The notes under the pieces are model-generated. The model had not been told where the DNA came from and did no database searches. It saw only the letters and a list, made by a program, of their open reading frames with translations. A DNA stretch of 64,000 bases from Waterburya sp. (GTDB lineage: Bacteria > Cyanobacteriota > Cyanobacteriia > Cyanobacteriales > Xenococcaceae), in contig CBDCJV010000002.1 in the NCBI GenBank assembly GCA_965217895.1, positions 3,456,001 to 3,520,000 on the forward strand, in the 5' to 3' direction. This document shows, piece after piece, positions 12,077-47,701 of this stretch. The position numbers and the translations under genes are program-made. How positions within the stretch are numbered: position 1 is the first letter of the stretch; every line of letters begins with the position of its first letter.

Positions 12077-12150
12077 GGGACTGTAGTTCAGCTGGTTAGA
12101 ATGCCTGCCTGTCACGCAGGAGGTCGCGGGTTCGAGTCCCGTCAGTCCCG
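12077..12150 (+). tRNA. trnD: tRNA-Asp(GTC)
   Basis: GGGACTG/CAGTCCC acceptor stem, CCTGC-CTGTCAC-GCAGG anticodon arm, GGTTCGAGTCC T-arm, 74 nt. Confidence 0.97.
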
Positions 12151-12214
12151 TTCGTGCTAAATGCACTCACCTTATAGACTTCCCACCTTAACCTCCTGCG
12201 TAACAAGCAGGCAT

Positions 12215-12232
12215 TTACTCAAAACTTACTCA
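12215..12232 (+). repeat. Paired TTACTCA direct repeats, putative integrase arm-type sites (left end)
   Basis: TTACTCA at 12215 and 12226 (11-bp period); same pair at 27162/27173. Confidence 0.6.
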
Positions 12233-12312
12233 AAAATGAATATAGCAGTAGGACGAGGACGAGTGCAACGAGTACTTATGTACCCCAATTTATCGAGCGG
12301 TTAGATAAGCAC

Positions 12313-12352
12313 AAAAAAATGACGGGTTGCAAAATATCACAACTCCGTCATT
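12313..12352 (-). terminator. Putative intrinsic terminator for the leftward element operon
   Basis: AATGACGG-GTTG...CAAC-T-CCGTCATT hairpin followed by a T-run on the minus strand. Confidence 0.55.
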
Positions 12353-12475
12353 ATGTCAAATCTAGTATCTGAAATTTATCCTAACCTCTACTCGCACGAG
12401 AATGAGATTTAAGCTTAATGCACATCCTGTTAGGGAAGTAGTGGATTATTTCTATTTTCCCTTACCTCTATTAGT

Positions 12476-12739
12476 CTATTTTCGATCGTTTTCTAGCTTA
12501 TCTAGAATCTTATCCACCATCTTTTCTAGATAAATCAACCTTTCTTTTGACTCTTTAAAATCAAGATTATTTGATTTGTTTTCTAAGTGCTTTTTCTCCT
12601 GGTAGTCAAACCATTCTTCTATTATCAAATCTAGTGCCCTTGCATTACCTATTTTTTTGTCTATAGAAACGCCGTTTATTATTGCTCGAGCTTCTTCTGA
12701 CATCATAAATGTTCTAGGCTCAAAATTTTTCATACCCAT
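12476..12739 (-). CDS. Small ribbon-helix-helix-like DNA-binding protein with coiled coil
   Basis: RTFMMSEEARAII...ARALDLIIEEW; GGAGG RBS upstream; paralogous to 12887..13195. Confidence 0.55.
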   Translation of the reverse strand: MGMKNFEPRTFMMSEEARAIINGVSIDKKIGNARALDLIIEEWFDYQEKKHLENKSNNLDFKESKERLIYLEKMVDKILDKLENDRK

Positions 12740-12886
12740 AAAATTCCTCCAATACGTACAATTTATTTAACTTACTTAAAATCACTCAATCTGCTCTGAT
12801 TTTTTGCTATAAGCGTTGGTTTGACGGTATCTCAAAGCCAAAAAAGTTAGTTAGTTGAGTTAGAACCAAACAATGTACAATAGAGG

Positions 12887-13195
12887 CTATATAGCCTCTT
12901 CCTCCTTAGTCTCCCAGACATTAGTGTTGATTTCTGACCTTAGATCTGAGATCTCGTCATAAAGCTCAAAAGAGCGCCTCCAAAGAGATGATACTTTTTT
13001 GAGCAATTCCTCGTCATTGAAAGTGCGGTTTTGCTCGGCGTATTTTTGTCTCTGTTCAAACTCCCTCCACTCACGTACGATTACATCTAAAGCTCTACTA
13101 TCGTTGTCCTTTTCTTCAATGGACTTTATTTTTATTGCTTCTATTGTTTCGATATCCAGCGAAAACCCTTTGTGTAGCCTATTTCTTTTTCTCAT
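12887..13195 (-). CDS. Small ribbon-helix-helix-like DNA-binding protein
   Basis: KGFSLDIETIEAIK...SRALDVIVREW; AAGGAGG RBS upstream. Confidence 0.55.
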   Translation of the reverse strand: MRKRNRLHKGFSLDIETIEAIKIKSIEEKDNDSRALDVIVREWREFEQRQKYAEQNRTFNDEELLKKVSSLWRRSFELYDEISDLRSEINTNVWETKEEEAI

Positions 13196-13225
13196 GAGCC
13201 TCCTTTAGTGTTTGTATATTTCTAG

Positions 13226-13255
13226 AGCGTTGTACACTTCGTTGTACGTTTTTTA
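13226..13255. repeat. 30-bp element-internal repeat, copy 1 (AGCGTTGTACACTTCGTTGTACGTTTTTTA)
   Basis: Identical to 24808..24837; 24/30 match to 17190..17219. Confidence 0.9.
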
Positions 13256-13516
13256 CTTACGCCTACGCTTCTTACGCTTTTCCTTCTTAGTGAGTAATTT
13301 TTGAGTATCACCACCAGAATTTAAAAGACGTAGGTACGTTAACAGGTCTTCAAGCTGTTCATCGCTTAAAAGCAACCTAGAACGCTTCTCATAGCGTTTC
13401 TTGATGACAGATATGCAGGCTGTAGTAGACCAGCCTAAAATAGCTACTTCGTCATCTATCGCGTGCTTAAGTTCCCAAAAACTAACTCCGTCTAGTTTTT
13501 CTTTTTGTCTCTCCAC
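13253..13516 (-). CDS. Hypothetical phage protein with basic C-terminus
   Basis: 87-aa ORF in coupled leftward operon; LGWS...Y.KRSR..LSDEQL pattern. Confidence 0.6.
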   Translation of the reverse strand: MERQKEKLDGVSFWELKHAIDDEVAILGWSTTACISVIKKRYEKRSRLLLSDEQLEDLLTYLRLLNSGGDTQKLLTKKEKRKKRRRK

Positions 13517-13814
13517 TTTGTATAGAGTTGATTACGCTGTGTAAATGATGCAGTTGGCATTCCCAATCTACTACTAGTTTGTGATTTATTCTTTTGTCTC
13601 CTTTGAACAAAAAATAACTATCTATTTTTTTAGCCAGCCTTACAAAATCAGTAAACTCACACATAGCACAGTACATTATGTTTTGTACTTCTAGATTTCG
13701 CCTAATTCCAGCTTCGTCTCCATCTATATATGATTCAATGAAATAGTTGGTATTGTCTATCGCTTGATTCAATGCCAGGACGACAATTTCTAGTTCCTTG
13801 TCCGTAATTCCCAT
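13482..13814 (-). CDS. Hypothetical phage protein
   Basis: 110-aa ORF with AAGGAG RBS, in operon. Confidence 0.55.
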   Translation of the reverse strand: MGITDKELEIVVLALNQAIDNTNYFIESYIDGDEAGIRRNLEVQNIMYCAMCEFTDFVRLAKKIDSYFLFKGDKRINHKLVVDWECQLHHLHSVINSIQSGETKRKTRRS

Positions 13815-13821
13815 AATCTCC

Positions 13822-15015
13822 TTATCCTTTAGTCCATTTACCTTTTTGCAATCTCAATCCCAAATCAAGCAAACACTCTTTAGTGTCTCTTGGCTTAGGA
13901 GCTTCAAACAACCAACCTTGCTGTACCCACATATCTACTTGACCGCGTATTTGAGCTGTATAGAGTATCAGTTCCATGTTGGCGTTCAAGGCATTCTTGG
14001 TTTCAGTAGCTACAAAATCTCTAAGCAGACTACTTAACCCCGCGCTCTTTTCGGTTTCCCTTTTAAACCAAAACCAATAATCTCTCATCCTGTTAACTGC
14101 TTCCGTGTCGTCTGACCAGATACCAGTGGCAATCCCACAAGCCATCATGTCAAGGCTAATAGTTCTTTGTTGAGAACCTAGTCCTTTTACTGACTTGCTT
14201 AAAATACGCCTAGCAGTAACAAAAGTACTAGCTACGTCGATGTCCCAAAACTCATCATATAGCTTAGAGAACCCTTTCCAGCTATAAGCAGATATATCCA
14301 GTAACGCACTTTGCCAGTTATCATCGGTTATCCCTAACTCGATCTTACGATTGTCTGAAAGTTCCTCTACGCGACTACAAGGGATTACTATCAGTCGCCT
14401 CCTTAGTTCTTTAAAGCGATCGTCTAGATGCAGAGGTGAGATGCTAGAAAACACTTTAGGACAAAAGCACCTAAACTCTATATTGACTCCTGTTTCTTTA
14501 GACGAGACAACAATCTTATCTGTACTTTTGTCATACCCAAACTTAAACATATTGTACAGCTCTGGACTAGTGGTAAAGGTGTTAGCACTAACGTCATCCC
14601 AGACCATGCAGGTATTTCTTTCGACTGTCTTGTAAGGAGATTGATTTTCTCCTTCTGCTACTGGCACTTCCGCCCAGGCAGTCCTTCTTTCTTCTAAGCT
14701 GTTTCTTATGCCAGCAAAAGTATCACTACTAGAGTTAATAGGAACACCGTGTAGACAACTAGCCAGTTTAGCAAGCGTTGATTTGCCACTTCCCGATTGT
14801 CCGTTGAGGAACAAATAAGGAACAATCTTACACAAAGCAGAAGGGAGCATAAAGTAAGTAGCGATAATATCGTAAAAGTCATGAGGCAGAAATATTGTTT
14901 GCTTGAGGATGTTTAGCAAGTTTCCAGGAAGAGTCAAATTGTCACTATAAATTTCCCTCCAGGTGTCGCTTATGCCGTCCTCAGACACAAACAAGGTTGA
15001 GTAATCGTAAGCCAT
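13822..15015 (-). CDS. P-loop NTPase, probable replicative helicase-like protein
   Basis: Walker A GQSGSGKST, Walker B MVWDD, downstream ELRRRLIVI arginine-finger-like motif. Confidence 0.75.
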   Translation of the reverse strand: MAYDYSTLFVSEDGISDTWREIYSDNLTLPGNLLNILKQTIFLPHDFYDIIATYFMLPSALCKIVPYLFLNGQSGSGKSTLAKLASCLHGVPINSSSDTFAGIRNSLEERRTAWAEVPVAEGENQSPYKTVERNTCMVWDDVSANTFTTSPELYNMFKFGYDKSTDKIVVSSKETGVNIEFRCFCPKVFSSISPLHLDDRFKELRRRLIVIPCSRVEELSDNRKIELGITDDNWQSALLDISAYSWKGFSKLYDEFWDIDVASTFVTARRILSKSVKGLGSQQRTISLDMMACGIATGIWSDDTEAVNRMRDYWFWFKRETEKSAGLSSLLRDFVATETKNALNANMELILYTAQIRGQVDMWVQQGWLFEAPKPRDTKECLLDLGLRLQKGKWTKG

Positions 15016-15017
15016 AG

Positions 15018-15737
15018 TTATCTGATAATTGCCATTAACATCTCAAAGTAGATATCGGAAAAGCCTTCGCAGTCTTCGTTCTCTGTGTGAACTCGTCTTG
15101 TCAGAGTAGCCAAGGAATCTTCCTCGGTATAGCTAGTGTCTTTGATATCCGCAGTCATCTGCTTTTTAAGAAAAGCTAGTTTCTCTTCTATCGAAGCTCC
15201 TTTGCTATCCCCACCATTCTTCTTAAAACCACCGTTCGACGGTGGAGTATATTGCGGTAACTTACCGCTAAGATCGATGACCTCAGTTTTGGCGTTGGTT
15301 GCTACCAGTGCCTCCAGGCTAGCCCTGTCCATCGATGCACATATCCCGTTAGGAATAAAAGCAAGTTCTCCTTTGATACCACCAGAAGGAGGGATAAAAA
15401 AGGCTTCGTTTGTTTTGATATATTCGTACAAAGCCTTTTCAAAAACCGACGGTTGATACTTGATACCCTGCCAATTGCCGTTAGCATCTTTTTCTCTTAT
15501 TTCGTATTCTTGTCCGTAGATAGGTATGGCGCATAATCCAGGCACGAGTACTTCACTTGCTTTGAAGCTTCTGACGATGCCAGAATAACTAGTGACAAAA
15601 GCAGCGATAATGTAAGCATCATTCGTAGGGTATACTTTAGCTTCATCAAAGGTAACTTTGAAATATGTTTCTGCTTTGTCTCCTTTGAGTTTGCCATAGA
15701 GGTCGTCTTTGTAGGGGTCTAAATACTTTACTGTCAT
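15018..15737 (-). CDS. Hypothetical protein in replication module (possible ssDNA-binding/accessory)
   Basis: 239-aa ORF ending 2 bp before the NTPase start; function inferred from position only. Confidence 0.55.
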   Translation of the reverse strand: MTVKYLDPYKDDLYGKLKGDKAETYFKVTFDEAKVYPTNDAYIIAAFVTSYSGIVRSFKASEVLVPGLCAIPIYGQEYEIREKDANGNWQGIKYQPSVFEKALYEYIKTNEAFFIPPSGGIKGELAFIPNGICASMDRASLEALVATNAKTEVIDLSGKLPQYTPPSNGGFKKNGGDSKGASIEEKLAFLKKQMTADIKDTSYTEEDSLATLTRRVHTENEDCEGFSDIYFEMLMAIIR

Positions 15738-15770
15738 TACTGTTCTCGATATATGTTTGCGTTGAAATAA

Positions 15771-15992
15771 TTAGTAGATTGCCTCAGAGAGAATAGGGTA
15801 GAAAGAAGACAACTTCTTGAAATAATCTTCTTCCCCTATTTCGTGCAGCCTTTTATTTGTCACATACAACAGCTCGGCTACAAGCTGTTCTGGATTTTTG
15901 TTCTGTTCTAGTGCTAGTGTTTCAACCGCGTTTATAGCCAAGCCGATTAAAGTAACGAGTCGAACATCGTAAGGTGATTCTATTGGTGTCAT
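15771..15992 (-). CDS. Hypothetical phage protein
   Basis: 73 aa, start overlaps stop of upstream nuclease gene. Confidence 0.55.
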   Translation of the reverse strand: MTPIESPYDVRLVTLIGLAINAVETLALEQNKNPEQLVAELLYVTNKRLHEIGEEDYFKKLSSFYPILSEAIY

Positions 15993-16513
15993 CGTAATAT
16001 TTTTAATTTTCCTAACTCTTTTAAGGTCAGCAGATTTTTTTTGAAGTCGGACTCAAGCAGTGTTTTAACCATCTTGTTTTCAACTGGTAGCTTTTCAGGA
16101 AAGACAATTCTAAGCCTGCGGAAAATATTAAACCGAAGTTCTTCTAAGATTCCTAAGATAAGAGCAAATTCTGTTAAGAATGCACCTTTTGCCTCTACAA
16201 AAAGCAAAGGTTTGTTAGGTTGAGAATTATCAGAAATGGCAAAATCGACTTTCCATGTTTTCCCTCTTGGATAACAATAACTAGGCTTTAGTATTGATAC
16301 TGGTAACTGTCTAATTATCCTGTTTTCGCCGTACATTCTGCATAACTCTAGATATGTTTTAAACTCATGCTGGGAATCAAACCTCCAGATATGCTCAGGG
16401 AGTTTTAGCTTGCCTTTTACTCGATATATTTCTAAATTCCTAGAGTCAAGGACAGAACAGAGTTCTGTATTCCAAAAAACAGGCACGGCTTTATATTTTG
16501 GTCTCGCTGGCAT
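15989..16513 (-). CDS. PD-(D/E)xK nuclease, DUF1064-like
   Basis: FDSQHE...Y, WKVDF and FVEAKG motifs. Confidence 0.7.
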   Translation of the reverse strand: MPARPKYKAVPVFWNTELCSVLDSRNLEIYRVKGKLKLPEHIWRFDSQHEFKTYLELCRMYGENRIIRQLPVSILKPSYCYPRGKTWKVDFAISDNSQPNKPLLFVEAKGAFLTEFALILGILEELRFNIFRRLRIVFPEKLPVENKMVKTLLESDFKKNLLTLKELGKLKILR

Positions 16514-16824
16514 TAAGCAGATTCCTCGTAAGAGCGCCTCTTGTTGTCTAGAACCCCGTAGTAATTATCCCAAGCTTCGTCAACAAGATCTAGCACCCCT
16601 TCTTTGCCTAAAACAAAAAGTGTTTTGCAGATTCCTTTTCCTATGTAATTGATTACATATTGACGGTCGTAAATAACTTTAAACATGGTCGGTACTGGAT
16701 CGCCAATACGTCGAATACTTTTATTACACTCGTATCCAGCCTCGCTAACCATAGCGGGGTGCAAAGCTTTGATAAACTTATTACCCGTCATTTCTCGCCA
16801 GGTAATAGTCTCTATTTCAGGCAT
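16513..16824 (-). CDS. Hypothetical phage protein, first gene of leftward replication operon
   Basis: 103 aa; TAATG stop/start coupling with the nuclease gene. Confidence 0.6.
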   Translation of the reverse strand: MPEIETITWREMTGNKFIKALHPAMVSEAGYECNKSIRRIGDPVPTMFKVIYDRQYVINYIGKGICKTLFVLGKEGVLDLVDEAWDNYYGVLDNKRRSYEESA

Positions 16825-17189
16825 AGTTTTCTTATTGAATTGTTAGCTAAAGCTTTAAAGGCAATCTCTCAGAGCTTTGAATCAAAGGTAAGTAGATTTG
16901 ACTTTTTAAACTTAATCTACTATCGTTTTTTTTTTGACTCGCATCAGGAAAAATACGGAAATTTTAGCTAAAAATTGGCTTATTTTTTAAATAATTAAAA
17001 ATATTGTTTTTATTGTAAATAATAATTACATAACTATTGACGTTAGTGTTTTTAAAAGCAATTATATTAATAACCCTATTCCGCTTCGCTCCAAGGGAAA
17101 TATACTAGGGGTGGGTGGGCGTAGCCACAGGGAAATAATCACTTATATAAAAACTTTACTTGTTCTCTCTTCTAAGAACATCTTCTAAA

Positions 17190-17219
17190 AGCGTTCAACA
17201 CATCGTTCAACGTTTTTCA
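17190..17219. repeat. Variant copy of 30-bp element repeat
   Basis: AGCGTTCAACACATCGTTCAACGTTTTTCA; GT to CA change in both half-sites. Confidence 0.8.
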
Positions 17220-17228
17220 GATATACAT

Positions 17229-17651
17229 CTACTCACTAGTTACCTGCTTAATAATTTTCTTAGTAGCTGATATTTCTGTTTTTATCTCTTCTGTATTTTC
17301 TACCTCTGGCAATTCCTGAATCTCTTCTATCGCTCCCTGTAATCTTCCGTACCCTTCCTGTCCTTTTAAAGACTCCTCGTAAACCTTTCTTAGCTTCTCG
17401 TAAGCCTCGTCTTTTTGCCTAATAATCTCGGCCTGACTATCTAGCTTAGCTGCTACTTCTGTAAGTTTGTTCGCACTGCTGCCAATGATTAGTTGAGTAT
17501 TCGCTACCTTTAAGCCGACTTCAGGCGCACGAGCAACTCGTATCCCCAAACAGACAATAAACACAAAAACACCCCCAGAAAGCAAATTCAAGCTTAATGG
17601 AGGCAGTCGAGTAAAACCTTTAGTAATCATTGTTTTATAAATAAATTGCAT
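17229..17651 (-). CDS. Single-TM coiled-coil protein, possible lysis accessory (spanin/holin-like)
   Basis: N-terminal hydrophobic helix, coiled-coil C-terminus, overlaps lysozyme 3' end. Confidence 0.5.
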   Translation of the reverse strand: MQFIYKTMITKGFTRLPPLSLNLLSGGVFVFIVCLGIRVARAPEVGLKVANTQLIIGSSANKLTEVAAKLDSQAEIIRQKDEAYEKLRKVYEESLKGQEGYGRLQGAIEEIQELPEVENTEEIKTEISATKKIIKQVTSE

Positions 17652-18253
17652 TCGTCTTTTCTGCGGTTAACCAAACCAGGCAAAAGTTTTCCTCCTGCTC
17701 TAGTCCAACGACTAAACTCATTAAACGCTCTTTGATAGTCTTTTTGATTAAGTAGTTTAAGCAAAGTAGATTCACTAAACGCATCAATACCTACGTTAAA
17801 GGTAAAGCTAACTAAGGCATCAAACTGATTCTGATTTAAAGGCACGTCTACAAGCCTGAGTACAGCTTGTTCGTAAATTCTCAAGTCCTCTATAAGAAGG
17901 TTTTCAGCTTCAAGGTGACTAATCATCTGTCCTTGCTTTACTCCCTTAGTGTGTCCATAACCAATAGTCCAGACACCAGCGGGACAAAGATAAGCATTGG
18001 TTCTTAAGCCTTCCCACTTCTTGATCAGGCTTACGCCAATCTGCGAAGTCTTATTAGGTTTAATCGTTTTTTCATCAGGCTGTGTCATCCAGCCAACATA
18101 AGGCAAAGCTCCTTTAGGTCTAGGGGGGAGGTTTAAAACTTTTCTTGCTTCGGTATCGATTAGGTAATCAACACTCAGGCATTCGTCATCAGATGTTCTA
18201 CTTGTTATCGCTGCCATCGCCCGTTCCCGCATCTCCTTGATCGACAGGTTCAT
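17627..18253 (-). CDS. Phage lysozyme/endolysin (GH24)
   Basis: GVSLIKKWEGLRTNAYLCPAGVWTIGYGHT, LNQNQFDALVSFTFNVG, LPGLVNRRKDE. Confidence 0.95.
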   Translation of the reverse strand: MNLSIKEMRERAMAAITSRTSDDECLSVDYLIDTEARKVLNLPPRPKGALPYVGWMTQPDEKTIKPNKTSQIGVSLIKKWEGLRTNAYLCPAGVWTIGYGHTKGVKQGQMISHLEAENLLIEDLRIYEQAVLRLVDVPLNQNQFDALVSFTFNVGIDAFSESTLLKLLNQKDYQRAFNEFSRWTRAGGKLLPGLVNRRKDECNLFIKQ

Positions 18254-18731
18254 TTATTATTACTCCTGATACTGTTATTGTTTTTTCTAGATAGATAGGT
18301 ACACAGTAAAGTGTTAACGAATTCAAGTTAGCTAATGGAGAAATTAGTACCGTATCCCCTGGAGTTAAAGTAATAAAGTTTTGGTCGATAAATTCTTTAG
18401 TAGGCAGTAGAGAGCGACAAAATACTCTCTTTTCTAGCCTCACAATTGAAAAATAACAACTTGCATAACCTGCGTTATTGGCGTCTATATCAGAAACACT
18501 AATAAAGTCATCATCAGATTCAACGTCGCTACCTGCTGCTACTACCAAGTACTCCTTGCCCAAAATATCTTTTAAGTCAAACTGGTGTTGTTTGTTTGCT
18601 TTCAAGTCATAAAACACTATCGGCGTATAGCTTTCCAACTCCTTAGCTCTGTAAACCAACCCATCTTCTTTAAATACAGCAATCGAGTCAGTGCCATTGA
18701 GAATAATATCTTTTTTAATCGAACTTTCCAT
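18198..18731 (-). CDS. Hypothetical, candidate virion protein
   Basis: 177 aa beta-rich; coupled to 18731..19465. Confidence 0.55.
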   Translation of the reverse strand: MESSIKKDIILNGTDSIAVFKEDGLVYRAKELESYTPIVFYDLKANKQHQFDLKDILGKEYLVVAAGSDVESDDDFISVSDIDANNAGYASCYFSIVRLEKRVFCRSLLPTKEFIDQNFITLTPGDTVLISPLANLNSLTLYCVPIYLEKTITVSGVIINEPVDQGDAGTGDGSDNK

Positions 18732-19465
18732 TATAAAAACCCTAAATCTATTTGTAGTCTGCTGCCAATCACTTGTCTTAAAGCCTGTCCTTGGTCTGGT
18801 GGCAATAGCGCAGCTAATCCCTCAGCCAAGGTATATAATCCTGCGTCTGTTTGACTAATCCGAGTATTAAGCTGCGTTTCTCTAAAGTCATCAAGCTGTA
18901 TCTGGGAAGTTTCCCTCTCGCTTAGTTCCCTAAATTTATCCGTTATCAATTCCTCAATTACCGTTAGTTGTGCCTCAATCAAACCACTGGGTTGATTTGG
19001 ATCGATGCCTAGCACATTACCAATGCCGAACAAAGCATCCTCGACGAAGTTAAGCGTGTCACCTGTATATTCGTAAACCCTGATAGCCACATCTTTAAAC
19101 CAAAACGGCGGTGTATACCTAAGCCTAAACCTATCGGTACTAATGCGGTTTGTTTCGACTATCTGTAGCTTGTTAATAAACAAGCGGGTCGGAAGACTTT
19201 GAAGAACACTCGTTACGGGGCTATTACCACCAGGTACAAAATTGTAAACTTGCCTGATATCTCCTGCAAACTGCCAGCTAGGTTTGCCCGAGCCTGTTGT
19301 AGCTACGACAGCAATATAGTCAGAAAAAAGGCTAACGCCAAGGTCGATAGGAGGTATAGGGGTATGAGAATTTTCATTGATAATAGTAGCTGTTCTACTA
19401 GCATCGGCTACAATCCTCCAATCTTCAGAGTTATCAAAAAATATTAAGTCTTGTCCTGCTGGCAT
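18731..19465 (-). CDS. Hypothetical, candidate virion protein (beta-rich N-terminus, helical C-terminus)
   Basis: 244 aa in contiguous leftward block upstream of lysozyme. Confidence 0.6.
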   Translation of the reverse strand: MPAGQDLIFFDNSEDWRIVADASRTATIINENSHTPIPPIDLGVSLFSDYIAVVATTGSGKPSWQFAGDIRQVYNFVPGGNSPVTSVLQSLPTRLFINKLQIVETNRISTDRFRLRYTPPFWFKDVAIRVYEYTGDTLNFVEDALFGIGNVLGIDPNQPSGLIEAQLTVIEELITDKFRELSERETSQIQLDDFRETQLNTRISQTDAGLYTLAEGLAALLPPDQGQALRQVIGSRLQIDLGFL

Positions 19466-19471
19466 AACTGG

Positions 19472-19708
19472 CTATACCAATTTCATTTCTTCTAGATTGC
19501 CTTCAATAGTTTCTAGATAGCCGTCGATGTTCACTTGAGCGGTTTCAAGTAAATCGATGTACTCCTGAAAGCTAATTTTCTGAGCCAAAAAATCGTCCTT
19601 GGCTACTTCGACTATGGCATAGGTGTCCATTAATCTGTCTAGATCACTGTCGTTCATATCCCTAGTACTACCACCAGGGATAATTAGCTCTATTGCCCTA
19701 TCAAGCAT
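19472..19708 (-). CDS. Small acidic hypothetical protein
   Basis: 78 aa, 2-6 bp spacing to neighbours. Confidence 0.6.
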   Translation of the reverse strand: MLDRAIELIIPGGSTRDMNDSDLDRLMDTYAIVEVAKDDFLAQKISFQEYIDLLETAQVNIDGYLETIEGNLEEMKLV

Positions 19709-19710
19709 TT

Positions 19711-20274
19711 TTAATACTTCTCAGAATGAAAACTAGCTGAAGCAGTCGTAAGTGCTTCGACAGCAATAAGTATATCCCCTCTAACTTTGTTTTCTGCTTT
19801 TTCTGTTGCCGATGCACCATACGGGAAGGTAAAAGAATTGCCGATTCTCTTGCTGTATTTAATGCCCGTAATTTGACTAGTTGGTGATGCCGAACCTGTT
19901 CCGTAATCAAATACAGTTACCTGCGCAGGTTTAAAGCCCTGTATCTTGGTTTGACTTTCTGGGTCGTAAGTAACATGATTACAAGCACTTTGTACAGAGT
20001 CCAGAGTCGCTTTCTCATCTGCTCGTTTTGAAAGTGCTACGATTGCACCATTCGCAGGGTTTCCACCGAAGAAAAAAGGTAAAATGCCTGTTTTTAAAAT
20101 TTCACCAGGATTGCTATTATCGTCTCTGGAATAAACTAACTTAGTTTTCCCAGAAGCAAAGTCTTGAAAGTTTCTGGCAATTGTATTAGCAGGGGCATCG
20201 GGAGTGGGGGCGTTTGAGTTGGGAGTACGCAAAGTGGTCAAGGCATATTTTAATCTACTAAATCTTCTAGCCAT
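19711..20274 (-). CDS. Hypothetical, candidate capsid-type protein with basic N-terminus
   Basis: MARRFSRLKY N-terminus, 187 aa; structural role is inference. Confidence 0.55.
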   Translation of the reverse strand: MARRFSRLKYALTTLRTPNSNAPTPDAPANTIARNFQDFASGKTKLVYSRDDNSNPGEILKTGILPFFFGGNPANGAIVALSKRADEKATLDSVQSACNHVTYDPESQTKIQGFKPAQVTVFDYGTGSASPTSQITGIKYSKRIGNSFTFPYGASATEKAENKVRGDILIAVEALTTASASFHSEKY

Positions 20275-20391
20275 ATCTAATTATTGCTATTTTTATATAT
20301 TTACACTTTGTTTCTAACCTATCTGTCTTTGAATGAAAATGATTTGACTGGCAACTGATTAGAGAATCGACCTTTAAGGGCGCACACTTTT

Positions 20392-21210
20392 TTAAGCAAC
20401 CTCGATCGTTCTTGCTTTTGTCCCCGTTCTGTCTACTAAAATAAGCGGTTGAGTCAATCCTGGAATAAATAATTCTGCATAAGCAAATTTAACTGTGGCT
20501 ACGGGTCTTCGTTTTGGCTTCCTGACTACATCGCCCATGACTCGTACTGTTCCAGGTACATTGTAATTTTTTTTGTCTTCGTGGTATCTGAGAAAATTAT
20601 CCCAGTCTGGTTCGCTGTCATCTTGTATCCTAATTGCCTGCTCGATTATTTTCTTGGCGTCCGTTTCGTCATCTGTAGTGACGCTAAAAAAGTAACCTTT
20701 CTGTTTGTCTGCATAACTCCACAACTGTCTGCCTTTTCTGTAGAAAAAAACAGGTCTAGCAAAATCATTTAGTATTTTTAAAGCCAGTCGATTAATATTT
20801 GTTGTCGTATAATCTTCTTCTCTCCACCTAAAACTTACCTCGCTCCTAGCTGGTCTTCTTTCATTATCGGAAGCCTCATATTTGTCCTCTCTAAAGTGAA
20901 GCTTTACCTGTGGATAGTAGGTATTAGAAATCTCAAAGTCAGTGCTAGGAATACCGTAAACGTATTCATCTAATAAGTTTCCCGCTTCTACCCACCAGGT
21001 TAACATCCTGGCTAACGTAAGAGTCATTGTATCGGTGTCCTTATGTAGACAAATACGTTTAATTAGCTGTCTTGGCGCAGCCGTGCTAAGGCTAGCGTCA
21101 TCACTACCGTCAACGTCTCTAAAGTGCTTGTTTATAGCCTTGTTAAAGTAAGTTCTACAGTAACTTTGAAACATTTCAACATCTGGTTTACTCACAAGTT
21201 CGTTCCTCAC
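20392..21210 (-). CDS. Hypothetical phage protein (start may be the GTG of VSKPD, which has a GAGG RBS)
   Basis: 272-aa ORF; YGIP, PQVKLHFRED and RKPKRRP motifs. Confidence 0.7.
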   Translation of the reverse strand: MRNELVSKPDVEMFQSYCRTYFNKAINKHFRDVDGSDDASLSTAAPRQLIKRICLHKDTDTMTLTLARMLTWWVEAGNLLDEYVYGIPSTDFEISNTYYPQVKLHFREDKYEASDNERRPARSEVSFRWREEDYTTTNINRLALKILNDFARPVFFYRKGRQLWSYADKQKGYFFSVTTDDETDAKKIIEQAIRIQDDSEPDWDNFLRYHEDKKNYNVPGTVRVMGDVVRKPKRRPVATVKFAYAELFIPGLTQPLILVDRTGTKARTIEVA

Positions 21211-21447
21211 CTGTTCTAATTGGTATATTCATACTAACTTTTAATTTCAGGTGTTAATATTTTGTTTAGTTTCTGTTGTTCCAATAGATGCGCACTCTAA
21301 AAACGTGATAAGAAACAGGCACGCTCTAAAAACGCGTAGGGATAACTACTGATTCTTGTTTTTAAACTTTTTATCTGTCTTTTGTTTTTTTATCTGTCTA
21401 TCTAATTGTTTCTTAAGATACTGTAGTTCGATAACAAAAGCTTTCTA

Positions 21448-21897
21448 GTGCTACCAAGAGGATGGTTACAAACCAGACTCTTTCATCATTTAAATACCAG
21501 TCAAAATAGCAACAATTTAAAAGCACCCTTGGGAGAATTAGCTAGTAACACCCGATTAGATATCCCAAACACTACACCTACTACAACCAACAAATCATCT
21601 GTACCTACTGCTAGTAATGAGTTACAAAATAATAACTTTATAGACAAATCTCTTTGCGTATTTCATAACCATTTAGACTGGTTAAGTTTTACTTTTGAGA
21701 AGCTAAGTAAAGAGGAATTTAACCAATTAATTCAACTTACTGGTAGAGGATTAACCACGTTAGAAAAAAACAAATCCTGGTCTAGTGGTGAAAGAGCTAG
21801 AAGCTATCAAAACACTATTCACTCTGCTATCAGCTTAAAAGGTGCTTATAACTGCTATCAGGTAGAAAACAAAATAAGAAAAGTCGGTTTCCGATAA
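21448..21897 (+). pseudogene. Truncated N-terminal fragment of a Rep_trans-like replication initiator, copy 1
   Basis: SNTRLDI and HLDWLSFTF motifs, ends after 149 aa. Confidence 0.5.
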
Positions 21898-21954
21898 ATA
21901 GGCAAAAAAAAAGAAGCCCTGTTAAACAAGACCAACTTTCTTTACACAAAGACA

Positions 21955-22263
21955 ATGATAAATCCAAACAATCAAAATAGCAACCAGTAGTTTTCACCTG
22001 CCCAAAATAGCCCTAGTAATACCCCGCTAGATATCCGTTATACTCCACCCTTTTCTACTCATAGCTTTAAGTCACTTTTACTTTCTTCCTTAGACTCCCA
22101 GAATAAAAATAATATATTAAAAAATACTATTGATTATTTAAGAATTAGTAGTAGTAAATTAAGTAAAAGGTCTTTTGGAAACTTACTAGCTAACCTAGTC
22201 TTACCTGTACCTTGCTTTGAAAACAAAATACCTTTTGTCTATGATACATTAGTACTTGTTTGA
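21955..22263 (+). pseudogene. Second decayed paralogous Rep-like N-terminal fragment
   Basis: Manual translation MINPNNQNSNQ*FSPAQNSPSNTPLDI...TIDYLRISSSKLSK, in-frame TAG at 21988. Confidence 0.5.
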
Positions 22264-22300
22264 ATACTAACCTTAGTTACACCCAAAAGATATCTAAATA

Positions 22301-22609
22301 ATGACTCAAATTAACATTGCTACCGATATTCCAAGTCAAATCAATACTTTAGAACGCCTAGCTATGTGGTCGTGTATGGCATTGAGAAGAGTAAATCCAA
22401 CTTTAGCAGTCATTGAAATCGCCGACCAGACAGCCGAGAAGGTAGCGCAAACCGCTTTGGTACAGGCTGATGATGGAAAAATTAGGTTTATTGGCAGATT
22501 GAGCCTGGAAGTAGCAGCCGATTATGCAGAAGACAATACGGCAAAGCTTTGGACGAAAGCACTGGAGTTTAGCAATACTCAGCTACCCGCAGCCTACAAA
22601 GCAAACTAA
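22301..22609 (+). CDS. Hypothetical, candidate virion protein
   Basis: 102 aa, TAATG-coupled to 718-aa gene. Confidence 0.7.
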   Translation: MTQINIATDIPSQINTLERLAMWSCMALRRVNPTLAVIEIADQTAEKVAQTALVQADDGKIRFIGRLSLEVAADYAEDNTAKLWTKALEFSNTQLPAAYKAN

Positions 22610-24765
22610 TGGGCATTTATTCAAAATTTGTCAAAACACCTGGGGGGCAAACTAGATTTGTCGTCACGACTGAACCCCCTAGTATTTACGAAAGCTTTAG
22701 AAGTCCTATCCCCAAACCACCAAAACCACCTGTGTTGCTCAAGGGGGTAGGTAAGCTTCTAGGAATCCCTGCTTTAGTTCTTCTTGATTTTTTCTTTAAT
22801 AACAAGCCCTTGAGCGACGGAACGATCCCTCAATGGATTACGCAGATTGACGAGCAGCAAAAAATAGGCACAAAAAGCTATCCCCAGTCGCGTGACACCT
22901 ATTATCGCTTTGTTTATCGAGAAGCTAATCTTAATAACGGCGTGGTGACATGGGGTAATGACTACGTAAGGGTCAACTCAGATCGGTTTAACGGCATCCA
23001 GTCTTGGCGATTAAAGGCATTCTACAAAGGGATTGCCTCTTATCCAGCCGATAATAAATTTTTTACCTACGTTTACTATCCCAGCACAGGTAAATACGAT
23101 TCAAGACCAGCAGGTGAACGTAATGCTGATTATTATGTTGAGGTCGTTGATTTTTTAGGTGTAATAACAACTATCTACCTGGGTGGTACTAGCGGTCTAT
23201 GGGGACAAAGGTTTATTACAGTTGACAATATCCCTCAGCCCGAAATACAAGAAGATATTAAAACCAAAGCTAATAATCAGTTTGCAGCAGGATTAGCCTT
23301 AATCGATCTGCTTGGAGCTAAAGAATGGCAATTTGCAGGATTTAGTAAGCTGCCTAGCTTTGGTAATAACCAGTATCCTCAGATTGATTTTATTCCTCTA
23401 CCGACAATAAGTAATAAGCCAGGCATATTACCTACTCCTACACCTGTTCCTATACCCGACCCCGAGCCAAAGCCAGAAATAAAGCCAGAAATTAATGGTG
23501 GCACTAAAGAGATAATCGAACAAAAACAAGGACAAAAGAATGAATACCCCGATCTCGTTCCTGGCAAAAAATACATCAAGAGAATTACGACCAAGGATTC
23601 AGATGGAAAAATTATTAAGATTACTGTAAATCCTTCTGAAATATTAAACCCAACGCCTACACCAGTTCCCGACCCCAAACCAGTAAAAATTACCAAGACT
23701 CCCGACCCCGAGCCTAAAAACAATATTATTATTTTTACTCCTAATCCTGTTCCACCCCCTTCGATTAAGCAAGAAAAAATTACAGATAACGACCCTAAAC
23801 CATTCCCTCCGCCAATTATCCCCCCTGTCAAGCCACCCAATCAAACCGCGACAGATGACTGTGCTGGTTCGTGTGCAAATAGAGCTTTAGCACCAGGTTC
23901 ACCAGGGTTGCTAAATATTACAGGCTTATTAAATGGTTTGCTACTACAAGATCCTCTACTTAGAAGAATAGATACAACTACTACGACAACAAGAGACATA
24001 GTTTCTCATGCCGATTATGGTCTGTCTAAAATACAAAAATTCGCTAGTACCGCTTGGAAGGCTACCCACGGAGACAAGATCCTCAATGCGCTTACAACAG
24101 CGGTAGTTATTCATAACGGGGTAATGCTGTCTAGAGGATTGGGGAACAGTCTTGCTGACGTTGCTACCGTCACGCTTCAAGCCATGGGGCTTAAAGACTC
24201 GGAAGGTAAACCGTTTGACGTCCAACAGATAGTCAGTGAAAAACTAACTCAGATGATGCAAAGAATATTAGGTGCTGGAAACTACGAAGCACTCACTGCT
24301 AAACTGGCATCTTATAGTCGTGTCTACCAATCAGCTGCTAACTTAGCTGATTTAACCTTCAGTCTGTTTGATTCAGCTAGAAACATCGCAGAGGCTTCGG
24401 CTACTAATACAGGTAAGATAGGTAACGCTCTCAGGGAAGCTGGAGCGGTTTACGAAGATGCCTATGAAGAGATGTCCGAAAAATACAGTCCTCAGAACAG
24501 AGCAATGCGTAAGCTGTCGGGTCTGACTGAGAATGTAGAGGAGTTCACAGAAAAGGCAGACAGAATAGGCGAGGTAAGTAGTGAGGTAGTTGAAATCAGA
24601 GAGAGCTTTGCAGAGCTACAGTCAGAAAGAGAGGTGCTAAAGAATGAGGTTAACACCGCCTTAGATCTCAAGAAAGAAGAGAAAGACTTGGCTAAGGAAG
24701 ATGTTCAGACTAAAACAGATGTTAACGACATTGACTTTGACCCCGCTCTAGCTGAAGACAACTAA
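22609..24765 (+). CDS. Large Pro-rich/coiled-coil protein, candidate adsorption/DNA-delivery protein
   Basis: Aromatic beta-rich N-domain, PTPTPVPIPDPEPKP linkers, CxxxC, long helical C-terminus. Confidence 0.65.
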   Translation: MGIYSKFVKTPGGQTRFVVTTEPPSIYESFRSPIPKPPKPPVLLKGVGKLLGIPALVLLDFFFNNKPLSDGTIPQWITQIDEQQKIGTKSYPQSRDTYYRFVYREANLNNGVVTWGNDYVRVNSDRFNGIQSWRLKAFYKGIASYPADNKFFTYVYYPSTGKYDSRPAGERNADYYVEVVDFLGVITTIYLGGTSGLWGQRFITVDNIPQPEIQEDIKTKANNQFAAGLALIDLLGAKEWQFAGFSKLPSFGNNQYPQIDFIPLPTISNKPGILPTPTPVPIPDPEPKPEIKPEINGGTKEIIEQKQGQKNEYPDLVPGKKYIKRITTKDSDGKIIKITVNPSEILNPTPTPVPDPKPVKITKTPDPEPKNNIIIFTPNPVPPPSIKQEKITDNDPKPFPPPIIPPVKPPNQTATDDCAGSCANRALAPGSPGLLNITGLLNGLLLQDPLLRRIDTTTTTTRDIVSHADYGLSKIQKFASTAWKATHGDKILNALTTAVVIHNGVMLSRGLGNSLADVATVTLQAMGLKDSEGKPFDVQQIVSEKLTQMMQRILGAGNYEALTAKLASYSRVYQSAANLADLTFSLFDSARNIAEASATNTGKIGNALREAGAVYEDAYEEMSEKYSPQNRAMRKLSGLTENVEEFTEKADRIGEVSSEVVEIRESFAELQSEREVLKNEVNTALDLKKEEKDLAKEDVQTKTDVNDIDFDPALAEDN

Positions 24766-24807
24766 AATAACCTAAAAACACCAACGAGTTTATAGGCATT
24801 TCCAGAA

Positions 24808-24837
24808 AGCGTTGTACACTTCGTTGTACGTTTTTTA
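24808..24837. repeat. 30-bp element-internal repeat, copy identical to 13226..13255
   Basis: Direct sequence comparison, 30/30. Confidence 0.9.
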
Positions 24838-24848
24838 GATATGCCTAC

Positions 24849-25334
24849 CTACCTCTTCACCCAAACACCATCTTTTACCGCATAAGCTTCTAACTTCCGT
24901 TTGATTATTTTCCCCCTGGGTTTTTGAATACCGTGTCGCCACAGCTTGACCTTCCATTCACTTTGTCCCGTTATGGCTGCGATACGTTCATCATTCAAAT
25001 ACTTCGCATTTTCGTCTTGCTGTAAAGCCTTAATCTTGTCTAGTTCAGACTCTAAATACGCTACTTGCTCTTCTAACTCCTTTGTCCTCTCCAGTACCTG
25101 TACTGCTAGCTTATTAGCAGCCATAATGCCGTCTTCTGCTACAAGCCTCCACGCATCGAAGTCTCGATCCTCCATCAGACTCTTTGGTGTCTCGTCAATA
25201 ATCCCAGCACCTTTCTTAACCAGAGCCTCTAAAGCTTCAGATCTAGTCATCCTATGTTTGTCCGCATACTCGCTTATCAGTTCCTCTTCTGTAATATCGA
25301 AGTATCCCGCGATCGCCGTCTTATTCTCTTCCAT
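24849..25334 (-). CDS. Putative regulator: RHH-like N-terminus, coiled coil, HTH-like C-terminus
   Basis: YADKHRMTRSEALEALV; DERIAAITGQSEWKVKLWRHG. Confidence 0.55.
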   Translation of the reverse strand: MEENKTAIAGYFDITEEELISEYADKHRMTRSEALEALVKKGAGIIDETPKSLMEDRDFDAWRLVAEDGIMAANKLAVQVLERTKELEEQVAYLESELDKIKALQQDENAKYLNDERIAAITGQSEWKVKLWRHGIQKPRGKIIKRKLEAYAVKDGVWVKR

Positions 25335-25759
25335 AGCTTTGTCTCTCAGCTTCTACTGTTAAGCAATTATGTACTAAGTTTACTGTTTCACCTTCTGCTT
25401 CTATTGCTCTTAAAAACAGTCACGAAACACCCTAATCAGCGATGGTTACAAAATGGCTCGAAGCCGAAGAAAGTCAAGTGCTTGACCGCAGGTTTTTGAG
25501 GTACGAGAAACACTTTACGTTCGCAGGTGAAGAGGTATAATGCCATCGCTTGCTGATTGGGTTTGACTCAATACGCTTAATCTGAGATGCTATTCTTGCA
25601 AAGAGAATAATCTTGTACTTTATTAAATTAAAGCTAACCTTGATTTGTAAGCACCTCTTTGCACCCAAAGGTGCAGACAAACAATAAAAAAGACTCCTGT
25701 TAGAGAGCCTCTTTTTGATAAGCATATTGGTTTAATATATACCTAGTCCAGTAATGCAC

Positions 25760-27169
25760 CTATAGTAGCGCAAGAATCCCTTCCTTGTCCTTCTGGTAGA
25801 CGATTGACAGTATTTTAGCTGATATCTCTTTGTCTTCAGGAGAGGCAGCGCAGAGCCTCTTAACAGAAGCTAGTGCAGTAACGAAGTCAATAGCATTCTG
25901 GTTGGAGTTAAGTAACAAATCGATAGTTGTCTGCGTTGATTGTCTTTTCTTGTAGACGGATTCATTCATCTGTACTGTATGTCCCATCGATTGCGCTCTA
26001 ACTTCTTGAGGTATCCCCGCCTGTATCCCGTTGATATTAGCCAAGTGCCGTAAAGCGTGTGTCTGGGTAAAAGGAGCATTCCACTTAAGTAGTTTTTTAT
26101 AAGCACTTTTGTTGTAATAATTTGCCTTAGCTCTATCGCTACCATTCTGTACGCCAATTTCTGGTAGCAAAGGATTTTTAATATCTAGCAAGTCTATTAG
26201 GTTAGGATAGGCAGGCGGAATATTAGGACGCGCTATTCTGTAGCCTGTTTTAGTTGTAGTTTTAGTCGCGGTGAAACCAGATACAACTATTAGGTTGTTT
26301 GTGTTAGTAGCATCTGATAAGGACGGAATTATCACGCCGTCTTCTGTTTCAAAAGGAGTATACAAGTTAGATATTGCGAATACTTCATGAATTCTTAGTC
26401 CATAGATTATCTGTGTAGAAAAAACCCACAGCCAAGCTTTTCTTACGTCTATTCGAGCATTTGAACGAAGCTTGCTGCTAACTCCAAGCACTCTGTCTTT
26501 CCATTCCAAAAAGCTTTGTAATGTTATATTCTGAAGCTTTTTGTACTCAACTTGCATTACATCTATTTCGTCTAATTGGTCGATTAACGCTCGGTTATGG
26601 GCAAGCCTACATAAACGCTTCATAGAAGAAACGACACCTTTAAAAGTTTTTGTACCTTTCTTCTGTCTATCGATGACTTTTTGAATGTCAGCTAGGTTAA
26701 GCGTTTTATGGGTTGGAAGATATTTGTAAAATCTGCCGTAGGTATCATGCCAGCTTGACTGGTCACTAGGATTATCTTTATCCCTTTTCCTTTTTGTTCT
26801 ACTAGGTCTATCCCAAAAGTCATCCTCTACCTTTTTGATCGCTTCACCAAAAGTCAGCCTGTCATCAGCTAACTGAGACTCCTGTTTAATTTCTTTGTCG
26901 TACCACTGCCAGAATTCTGCTTCGGAAGCTAAGTTTTTTAACGCCTCCGCTACTTTGTTAGATTTTTTAAGAGCCTCTACCATCCCGTCTAAGGTAAATG
27001 TACAGCCACAGGCATAAGGCTTTCTAGCTGTATTAGGAGTCTTAAACTGCAAGTAGATGTTTTGACCTTTGCGAGTCATACCTACACCTCTAGGCGTTTG
27101 CTTCTGGTATCTACTGAAGTCAGATAATAAAGTCTCGTATCCTATCTCGTCTGTGTAATCCTTACTCAT
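25760..27169 (-). CDS. Tyrosine recombinase/integrase
   Basis: Catalytic set present: GLRIHE (R), TKTG (K), HALRH (HxxR), MGH, VY (Y). Confidence 0.92.
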   Translation of the reverse strand: MSKDYTDEIGYETLLSDFSRYQKQTPRGVGMTRKGQNIYLQFKTPNTARKPYACGCTFTLDGMVEALKKSNKVAEALKNLASEAEFWQWYDKEIKQESQLADDRLTFGEAIKKVEDDFWDRPSRTKRKRDKDNPSDQSSWHDTYGRFYKYLPTHKTLNLADIQKVIDRQKKGTKTFKGVVSSMKRLCRLAHNRALIDQLDEIDVMQVEYKKLQNITLQSFLEWKDRVLGVSSKLRSNARIDVRKAWLWVFSTQIIYGLRIHEVFAISNLYTPFETEDGVIIPSLSDATNTNNLIVVSGFTATKTTTKTGYRIARPNIPPAYPNLIDLLDIKNPLLPEIGVQNGSDRAKANYYNKSAYKKLLKWNAPFTQTHALRHLANINGIQAGIPQEVRAQSMGHTVQMNESVYKKRQSTQTTIDLLLNSNQNAIDFVTALASVKRLCAASPEDKEISAKILSIVYQKDKEGILALL

Positions 27170-27206
27170 TTCTTACTCACTTTGCTTGCAATGGTTAACG
27201 AGTAAG
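27162..27206 (+). repeat. TTACTCA pair plus inverted GAGTAAG, putative arm-type sites overlapping integrase start codon
   Basis: TTACTCA at 27162 and 27173; CTTACTC on minus strand at 27200..27206. Confidence 0.6.
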
Positions 27207-27246
27207 CGTTTGAGAGAACGCTATTGCGCTGGTTAGTCGGTCTACT

Positions 27247-27275
27247 GGGAGTTCAAGTCTCCCTACCCCCACTCG
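27247..27275 (+). other. tRNA-like 3' fragment (T-arm plus acceptor 3' strand), putative right attachment site
   Basis: GGGAG-TTCAAGT-CTCCC-TACCCCC-A; not tRNA-Asp sequence. Confidence 0.65.
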
Positions 27276-27476
27276 ACATAAAGTCTTTTGTTGAAAAGGA
27301 TTTAAGACTGTCAGGTTAGATGACATTATTTTGTTAAGACGACAAATAATTAGTGAATGTACATTTGTATCCCCTTAATTTGCTTTTTAAACGAGTTATC
27401 GTAGAATAACAAAAATGAATGGCTTGCTAGTTGCCGCTAACAAGCCAAAGACAATTAAGACCAACCTAAGTTTGTT

Positions 27477-27611
27477 TTACTTTTTCTTCTTAGGGGTGGC
27501 TTTTGATGGTGTAGAACCAGCAGTTTTTGTTGCATTACTGGAGTTTTTGTTGCCTGACGCTTTTGAAGTTGGTTGAGCAGCTTTTGCTCCAGTCTTTTTC
27601 TGTTTAGTCAT
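27477..27611 (-). CDS. 44-aa Lys/Ala/Thr/Ser-rich basic protein (below ORF-track cutoff)
   Basis: MTKQKKTGAKAAQPTSKASGNKNSSNATKTAGSTPSKATPKKKK; AAGGAG RBS upstream. Confidence 0.6.
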   Translation of the reverse strand: MTKQKKTGAKAAQPTSKASGNKNSSNATKTAGSTPSKATPKKKK

Positions 27612-46568: not shown

Positions 46569-47480
46569 TTACCAATCATCTTCGTGATTTTGTCTTTCTA
46601 ATAAAGATATAGCCAAAGCGATCGCTTTTTTTACTCCTTCGTCTTTTTCTTTGTCTAAAGCAGTCTCTAAAGAAGCGAGGGAATTGCGATCGCCAATTTT
46701 CATTAAGGATAAAGCTGCTGATTTGCGAGTTTCTGCCTCTGCATGATTTAGCAATAATCTTAAATCAGGAATAGCTGGCTGATATTTTAGGTTACCTAAT
46801 ACTGCTGCTGCTTCACTGCGAACGTTGGTTGCAGGATCTTGTAAAGATGTAACTAATAAATTCAGTGCTTTGGCATCATGACGATCTTCTTCTACTACTT
46901 TAGCGATCGCACCTACCACCGCAGCCCGCACTTCAGGAGAGTCTGAGTCATAAACTTCATATAGCTTATCTTTTGCCTTAGCACCAATAAACGCTAAAGC
47001 CCAAGCTGCATGACCTTTATTGCTTTCAGTAGATTCCTTGGCAGCTAAGACTTCTAATAAAGGCGTTACTGATGCTTCCCCTGTCCGCGCCAGTGCGCCA
47101 ATAGCAGAGGCTTGCACCACCGTATCTTCGTCGTTTAATAGTGCCTGGATTAAATAAGGGACAGCCTGGGGATCTTCAATCAAAGTTAGAGTTTTTCCTG
47201 CTGCTCTTCTCACCACTGCGTTAGAGTGATGTAATAAGGCATCGATCAATAGATTTACGGCGGGTTTACCTACCTCTCCTAAAGCTTCTGCATAGCCCAG
47301 CCTGACCATTCCCCGCGTATCTCCTAAGCATTCCACCATTTGCCACAAAAGCTGTTGGTCACTATGGTCAAATGTTCCTTGAGCAAGCTGCTGATTTATT
47401 TTGGCTAACAGTTCGTCTGTTTCTTCGTGATTAAGTAGCAGCGTCTCGCCATTCTTAGAAGTGTTAGGCGTATTAGTCAT
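46569..47480 (-). CDS. HEAT-repeat (phycobilin lyase-like) protein
   Basis: Repeated VRxAAAxALG units; DTRGMVRLGYAEALG. Confidence 0.85.
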   Translation of the reverse strand: MTNTPNTSKNGETLLLNHEETDELLAKINQQLAQGTFDHSDQQLLWQMVECLGDTRGMVRLGYAEALGEVGKPAVNLLIDALLHHSNAVVRRAAGKTLTLIEDPQAVPYLIQALLNDEDTVVQASAIGALARTGEASVTPLLEVLAAKESTESNKGHAAWALAFIGAKAKDKLYEVYDSDSPEVRAAVVGAIAKVVEEDRHDAKALNLLVTSLQDPATNVRSEAAAVLGNLKYQPAIPDLRLLLNHAEAETRKSAALSLMKIGDRNSLASLETALDKEKDEGVKKAIALAISLLERQNHEDDW

Positions 47481-47482
47481 TT

Positions 47483-47701
47483 CTAATTATTCTCAGTCAA
47501 ATTAGCTTGTTGTTCACGGATTCTTGCTAGTTTGCTATCAATTTCTGCTAGCTGTGGCTCTAGCTTGGCCATGGTTGCTTTTTTCGACAGCTTGGCTTTT
47601 TTTGCTGCTTCTAAAGTTTCGTTGACCAGGCGATCGCGGTATTGCTCAAATTCAACAATCAATTCTGCCAAATCTTCTGCCGTTACTGGAGTATCAGCCA
47701 T
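47483..47701 (-). CDS. Small coiled-coil hypothetical protein
   Basis: 72 aa, ends 2 bp before the HEAT gene start. Confidence 0.7.
   Translation of the reverse strand: MADTPVTAEDLAELIVEFEQYRDRLVNETLEAAKKAKLSKKATMAKLEPQLAEIDSKLARIREQQANLTENN

Follow-up and report, generated by a model that had tools for sequence, protein, structure and literature searches.

In lambda, sib retroregulation lets an RNA structure control an int-linked transcript that exists in one recombination state only. Among the tRNA islands collected by Islander, the class with a crossover in the T loop is grouped as J (PMC4383910), and the elements of the XisA/XisC excisases are described as interrupting protein genes (PMC4874684). 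The element ICEclc, whose target is a tRNA 3' end, carries at its far end the outward promoter Pcirc, which comes to lie upstream of int once the element is circular (PMC5812530), and a related outward transcript at a tRNA is reported for PhiRv2 (PMC3861185). Target switching and hybrid ends formed by inversion are known from archaeal integrases (PMC7253208), and the mv4 integrase combines strict overlap homology with loose core sites (bioRxiv 2023.11.06.565760). The element considered here lies in a 64,000-nucleotide stretch of Waterburya sp. (assembly GCA_965217895.1, contig CBDCJV010000002.1, positions 3,456,001 to 3,520,000), referred to as the window. It is a prophage-like integrative element which, as assembled, has an intact tRNA-Asp(GTC) gene at its left end, and a tyrosine integrase gene next to a tRNA-like fragment at its right end. 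Our favoured account, to which we give a probability of roughly three in four, comprises a displaced tRNA-Leu(TAA) end on the right, two sister elements, a hybrid join between them, an integrase that is a generalist for T loops, and a left end with a predicted promoter and hairpin.

The right-end fragment is the displaced 3' end of tRNA-Leu(TAA)

The following features of the window are concerned:

12077–12150, plus strand: intact host tRNA-Asp(GTC), attL of the Asp copy (ARAGORN; Rfam RF00005)
12151–27245: prophage-like integrative element of about 15 kb, genes mostly of no known function (second copy at C2:1–15443)
17751–27489: collapsed or exchanged segment
25760–27169, minus strand: 469-aa tyrosine integrase, XisA/XisC-like with a lambda-Int fold, Leu(TAA)-type allele (phrog_1, E 6.7e-8)
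27162–27205, plus strand: putative right-end arm-type sites, two direct (27162–27182) and one inverted (27200–27205), conserved in homologous right ends; the first direct site overlaps the int start codon
27205–27222: palindrome within conserved element-end sequence, its perfect pairing incidental
27246–27271, plus strand: attR direct repeat, exact tRNA-Leu(TAA) 3' end (T arm, acceptor strand, discriminator)
27272–27489, plus strand: host sequence flanking the Leu attR, present again at the start of contig C2

A genome search found all 26 nucleotides of the fragment 27246–27271 in the 3' end of the host tRNA-Leu(TAA), at 15383–15358 of contig C2, the contig with the second copy of the element in the assembly that holds the window (G000). 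The initial annotation had read the fragment as a mimic in register with, but not identical to, the tRNA-Asp 3' end. Its gap-free alignment of 27247–27275 with 12126–12154 (18/29) was reproduced, as were the fully paired T stem and the TCG at both ends. Over the 25 nt from the T stem to the discriminator, however, the fragment scored 25/25 against Leu(TAA) and 15/25 against Asp, which did no better than many others among 38 host tRNA entries scoring 10 to 25. Judged from these scores, the likeness to tRNA-Asp is what two tRNA ends have in common. The flank following the fragment resembles the sequence 3' of tRNA-Leu(TAA) in the relative G019 (a 37/41-type match, 90%), the first 15 nt being alike. 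The fragment is therefore the ordinary attR of tRNA-Leu(TAA) and not a mimic. An origin from tmRNA was considered and rejected, the host tmRNA end being different. The stretch 27200–27275 folds no better than shuffled sequences (z -0.80), and Rfam gave no tRNA around the fragment, only chance hits. The 18-nt palindrome at 27205–27222, noted to lie roughly where an anticodon arm would be expected, is present as described; it pairs perfectly in 1 of 32 homologous right ends and at five or more of its six pairs in 8 of them, and is thus no anticodon arm but a chance overlap of conserved element-end motifs.

The second copy of the integrase gene lies at the start of contig C2 in an element of about 15 kb (C2:1–15443), which starts at tRNA-Leu(TAA) and ends in the identical fragment with 218 bp of the same host flank, followed by the end of the contig. 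The two copies are oppositely oriented and have different left ends. Between them, 17751–27489 is free of substitutions, including the 218 bp of host flank, apart from a single 4-bp gap in int of the C2 copy, whereas 50 substitutions and an 18-bp indel separate them over 13850–17750. The Islander signature, an intact tRNA gene and its own 3' fragment in direct orientation, was found for C2:1–15443; the window as assembled pairs an Asp gene with a Leu fragment. The 4-bp gap (C2:498, corresponding to 26989–26992 of the window) frameshifts int in the contig-end copy and is likely an assembly error, since the sample's contig there has no gap. A further peculiarity of C2 is its end at 5197099–5206099, with 48–63% GC against 39% for the genome, which is probably fused foreign DNA.

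We compared the window with contigs from two sequencing runs of one sample, which may be the source of the assembly and thus not independent, and which also holds related strains; 40 of 454 differences and 12 of 109 loose ends were considered, and depths are given for each run. The unitig with the Leu right end (26030–27354) has depths of 26.3 and 201, close to those of host DNA in single copy (28 and 203 at 28375, the other allele subtracted), and the unitigs of the element core reach 69–79 and 400–429, twice that or more. One contig, with depths of 25.8 and 172, leaves the right end at 27228, continues with 15 other letters that are absent from the assembly and enters the tRNA-Asp sequence at 12124. 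Its T loop lies 89 nt from the arm motif, within the spacing of the family given below. A second integrase allele was seen at 26891–26924 (depths 28 and 168), and this allele diverges over 26087–26861. The contigs of this one sample thus show a strain with a pair of sister elements, whose ends are of Asp type in one and of Leu(TAA) type in the other; the two share about 8 kb of identical or nearly identical DNA and differ in the middle of their integrases. The statement that there is no duplicated tRNA-Asp fragment holds for the assembly, where the 20-mer of the Asp 3' end occurs once, but not for the sample, whose contigs contain an Asp-type attR.

The contigs thus have two left and two right ends, whereas the assembly contains the Leu right end twice and the Asp right end not at all. 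That Asp on the left is joined to Leu on the right in the window is probably due to the assembler collapsing the repeat. Two points weigh against this account: the contigs cannot phase the shared 8-kb stretch, so that either join fits them, and the Asp-type right end could in principle belong to another strain, as the sample holds related strains, one of them at similar depth. The join might also be real. Homologous recombination between the inverted copies would then have flipped the intervening chromosome, so that Asp-left/Leu-right would stand here and Leu-left/Asp-right at the second site, with only the contig start misbuilt. The opposite orientation of the copies and their long identical stretch would suit such an event, inversion between cognate elements has a described precedent (PMC7253208), and the gene order beside tRNAs is shuffled between the assembly and its close relatives, a terC block following Leu(TAG) in G017, G019, G020 and G023. 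Synteny with complete relatives shows shuffled flanks and does not discriminate between misassembly and inversion. At the contig start the assembly runs from a Leu left end into a Leu right end, and the Asp right end is missing from it, which demonstrates an error at some point in the repeat; this error, and the turn to 50–63% GC at the far contig end, leave the inversion a tentative alternative with about one chance in three. By far the least probable is the reading of the initial annotation, in which the element entered just 3' of tRNA-Asp and the right end is a mimic or the relic of an earlier target. It fits the mismatched assembled ends, the missing Asp fragment in the assembly and the ability of the family to move between tRNAs, but it is at odds with the exact Leu(TAA) identity, the duplicated Leu flank, the single-copy depth of the Leu end and the Asp-type attR in the contigs. 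Moreover, the empty site that it predicted, tRNA-Asp followed by TCGACATAAAGTC, was found in none of the four closest relatives (G017, G019, G020 and G023).

Target range of the integrase family

To the family belong right ends at many tRNA genes. A T loop is in place in 36 right ends; 34 of these agree with a tRNA end at 18/20 or more, and they fall under 20 labels in which isoacceptors with like ends are indistinguishable. In all 34 the T loop lies 88–91 nt from the arm motif, and the match to the tRNA begins 0–9 nt 5' of the T loop. From these repeat borders we infer that the crossover falls on the T loop within a generic T arm, and not just 3' of the tRNA as had been proposed. The idea that the integrase reads generic T-arm features and can move between tRNA genes fared better and holds at the level of the family, for about 20 tRNA types.

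Five elements of the genus were retrieved with both ends on a single stretch, and in all of them the ends are cognate; outside the genus (20 regions) cognate repeats were found in 11 of 14 tRNA rows; a repeat that reaches the discriminator is common to 19 of 22 left/right pairs. In the genome G013, near-identical right ends adjoin Gly(GCC), Ser(TGA) and two Ser(GCT)-type ends. The left ends behind the same tRNAs are nearly identical as well, and each of these tRNAs has its own 3' end, one lacking a C. These near-identical ends at several tRNAs uphold the idea of a T-arm generalist. In metagenomes the T loop is in place in 26 distinct ends from 93 loci, and five of these ends have one flank in common (one with a single change), joined to five different tRNA-like ends with four T loops. 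As a pattern in the sequences compared, an XisA/XisC-like integrase thus enters several tRNA genes, and each gets its own 3' end at both borders. After a move the left tRNA end would be restored, probably by in-register conversion from the displaced copy or from a copy on the sister chromosome.

Relic left ends on contig C2, with decayed antisense copies and partial arm sites, lie behind Leu(TAG) at 2327497, Arg(TCT) at 3039688, Leu(GAG) at 3754835 and Ser(GGA) at 49985, indicating that the family has visited several tRNAs of one genome. The metagenome contig L233 joins a right end, a Ser(GGA) repeat and a left end, and represents either an excised circle or a tandem arrangement.

The integrase carries the invariant residues R259, K307, R374, H397 and Y406 in the alignment. 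Atlas placed it with the XisAC_N/XisAC_2nd clusters (0.99), and direct searches with the hidden Markov models of these domains (Pfam and NCBIfam copies) gave no match in it. Its predicted fold matches lambda Int over the full length (1z1g, Foldseek E 1.3e-4), and no extra domain beyond a plain lambda-type integrase appears in that prediction. The N-terminal domain is predicted to consist of three strands and a helix, and TTRCTCA sites, which are putative arm-type sites, are repeated at both element ends. Weak PDB profile matches (E 0.001–0.002) had raised Csm3 as a candidate fold; it was discarded as the fold search gives lambda Int, and the predicted integrase helices sit on what we take to be a Csm3 strand.

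Homologues occur in 16 of 39 genomes of the genus and in 33 of 301 of the order, and the named records are labelled Myxosarcina and Pleurocapsa. Residues 101–361 are hypervariable in the family (45–65%) even where the N-terminus is 86–96% identical. The two Leu(TAA) integrases are 51–56% alike in the middle and are not sisters, and the integrase tree tracks the target weakly in 16 partly fragmentary sequences.

Antisense tRNA copy at the left end

The left end of the element comprises the following features:

12154–12166, plus strand: small hairpin at the start of the left end (from sequence and predicted folds), similar to hairpins in many homologous left ends
12177–12185, minus strand: inverted T-loop-like motif (family consensus GTGAAAGTC, opposite GTTCRAGTC)
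12191–12215, minus strand: antisense copy of tRNA-Asp 12100–12124
12215–12235, plus strand: two direct putative arm-type integrase sites, TTRCTCAAAA
12239–12267, minus strand: candidate outward sigma70-like site (-35 at 12267–12262, 17-nt spacer, -10 TATATT at 12244–12239)

The segment 12191–12215 is the reverse complement of the anticodon arm and variable loop of tRNA-Asp at 23 of 25 positions, and both mismatches are G-U wobbles in a minus-strand RNA. At the corresponding place in the Leu element stands the variable arm of that element's own tRNA, likewise inverted. We examined 110 distinct loci of a tRNA plus its flank, which are kin to one another and were picked by arm motif, integrase or tRNA and not by the copy. 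The arm motif, present in 25 of 39 genomes of the genus against 5 for the reversed control, lies at +55 to +75 behind the tRNA in 43 of these loci. In 30 of the 43 arm-bearing left ends the adjacent tRNA is the best match to the copy, and in 25 the identity is at least 20/30. Among the 67 loci without arm sites three reach 20/30, all of them element ends (the assembly's own Leu(TAG) relic; Gln in G140, 28/30; Pro in G222, 25/30). The identity extends over stems, loops and the variable region and drops at the anticodon, the register is fixed, and the copies track at least 13 tRNA types. In L115 of G013, a left end at tRNA-Val(TAC), the copy is a Thr/Val hybrid, which speaks for recombination between element ends.

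The copy matches the host-side sequence at 20–27 of 30 positions and the element's other arm at 9–14, and pairing with that arm was discarded for this reason. In 13 modelled pairs with a matching copy, 16–28 of the 30 nt past the repeat pair in attL against 0–21 in attP; in three modelled pairs with a non-matching copy none is paired in attL. The attP-like or tandem junction L233 has a copy that matches at 26/30. Mismatches of the copies are more often C>T (34/133) than G>A (18/189), and pairing is better on the minus-strand RNA in 20 of 28 copies and on the plus strand in 7. The minus-strand RNA of the left end has a predicted folding energy of -71.7 kcal/mol (z -6.95), that of the plus strand -56.4. 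In 26 of 40 left ends a -10-like hexamer, TATATT or TATAGT, is oriented towards the tRNA.

We propose, with slightly less than even confidence, that the left end works as a switch. In the circle its outward promoter would read across attP into int and so serve the integrase. In the prophage the same promoter would read into the host tRNA in antisense, where the inverted tRNA copy would fold the transcript back into a hairpin of 35–40 bp that may mask or doom it. After a move the copy would be rewritten; the imperfect inverted repeat probably allows this through template switching. Several observations weigh against this model. Promoter and hairpin are predictions, and a generic consensus promoter scan did not call the site at 12239–12267. 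The copy scores below 20/30 in 18 of the 43 left ends and was found in 2 of 11 repeat-flanked elements outside the genus, and is therefore dispensable. Mutation of C to T linked to transcription would give the same strand bias, and the loci are related to one another.

The copy could instead be a neutral footprint, left when template switching that involved the T loop and the inverted motif resembling it copied tRNA sequence into the element, and then decaying. The wide range of decay (10–27/30), the Val/Thr hybrid copy in L115 and the absence from most distant elements would be expected on these terms; the fixed borders and register in three families, the high identity in most elements of the genus and the strand-biased mismatches would not, and we regard a mere footprint as unlikely. 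A bolder reading makes the copy an RNA guide: the leader RNA of int, made from the circle, would base-pair with the target tRNA gene on its template strand and so direct a T-arm-generalist integrase to that tRNA. Rewritten at each change of target and sequestered by the hairpin once integrated, it would make the enzyme a naturally reprogrammable, RNA-aimed tyrosine recombinase. Most elements of the genus show a pattern compatible with this: the copy spans precisely that host-side portion of attB which is missing from attP, in a fixed register and for at least 13 tRNA types; it is free of a partner in the modelled attP, its mismatches favour rU-dG wobble, and the attP-like junction L233 has a matching copy. 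The unlike middles of the two Leu(TAA) integrases would also suit a guide, but the Asp and Leu sisters likewise differ there, as specificity set by the protein predicts. In G013, elements occupy three tRNAs cleanly although their copy does not match (10–13/30), a Thr-type copy stands at one Val site, G006 also counts against a required guide, 9 of 11 elements outside the genus have no copy, and the predicted fold is that of a plain lambda-type integrase without an extra domain. We therefore consider a guide improbable, more so than the footprint. A role of the copy as a site for an accessory protein is possible.

Element content and comparison with known systems

Two further genes within the element were assigned:

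13822–15015: P-loop/primase-like gene
17627–18253: endolysin

No capsid, packaging or terminase genes were recognised in the element, endolysin and integrase being its only recognised phage-type products. The Atlas neighbours of a 272-aa protein all score below 0.9, some of them viral, and searches of viral_contigs and phage records gave no relative of the element. Related elements are present in G023, G017, G049 and G006, and further fragments without integrase lie at C2:3927664–3933766, 4439516–4440453 and 47364–48016. A 41-nt repeat with internal direct repeats, operator- or promoter-like, occurs three times between element genes (13226–13266, 17190–17230 and 24808–24848), and an AT-rich dispersed repeat at 27279–27364 is also found beside tRNAs and att sites in relatives.

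The oddity that drew attention to the window is thus a normal att site, made to look strange by a faulty or shuffled join, and a caution to programs that search for islands. The family, related to the heterocyst excisases, moves among about 20 tRNA genes and restores each of them, which makes the change of an integrase's target directly testable. A target-tracking inverted copy at attL was not found described in the literature searched (mostly non-subscription texts), nor in the pertinent passages of PMC4383910, PMC4874684, PMC4853749, PMC5812530, PMC3861185, PMC7253208 and bioRxiv 2023.11.06.565760. If the hairpin switch is true, it would give elements a novel means of sparing the tRNA that they occupy; a guide, if true, would mean a programmable tyrosine integrase.

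Unlike lambda sib, the structure proposed here has one arm made of host tRNA sequence and a second arm that is rewritten for every target. As in the islands described by Islander (PMC4383910), an intact tRNA stands at one end and a displaced 3' fragment at the other, with the integrase adjoining and a repeat that runs from the T arm. Unlike those islands as portrayed there, one integrase clade, and even one element, uses many tRNA types, and an inverted copy of the tRNA body stands in the left end, a feature that the passages on island structure do not mention. With the XisA/XisC excisases of the heterocyst nifD and hupL elements (PF27551, PF27132; PMC4874684) the integrase shares the XisAC clustering and short direct repeats, but its targets are tRNAs, its element is prophage-like with an endolysin, and no protein gene is interrupted. 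The predicted outward promoter would come to lie upstream of int on circularisation, as Pcirc of ICEclc does, and both elements target a tRNA 3' end, but the promoter here lies at the intact-tRNA end and faces into the tRNA, and the account of ICEclc describes no antisense copy (PMC5812530). The suicidal pT26-2 integrases of Thermococcales are likewise one family that uses many tRNA 3' ends and forms hybrids by inversion between cognate copies; there the att site lies inside int, whereas here int stays whole and is accompanied by arm sites (PMC7253208).
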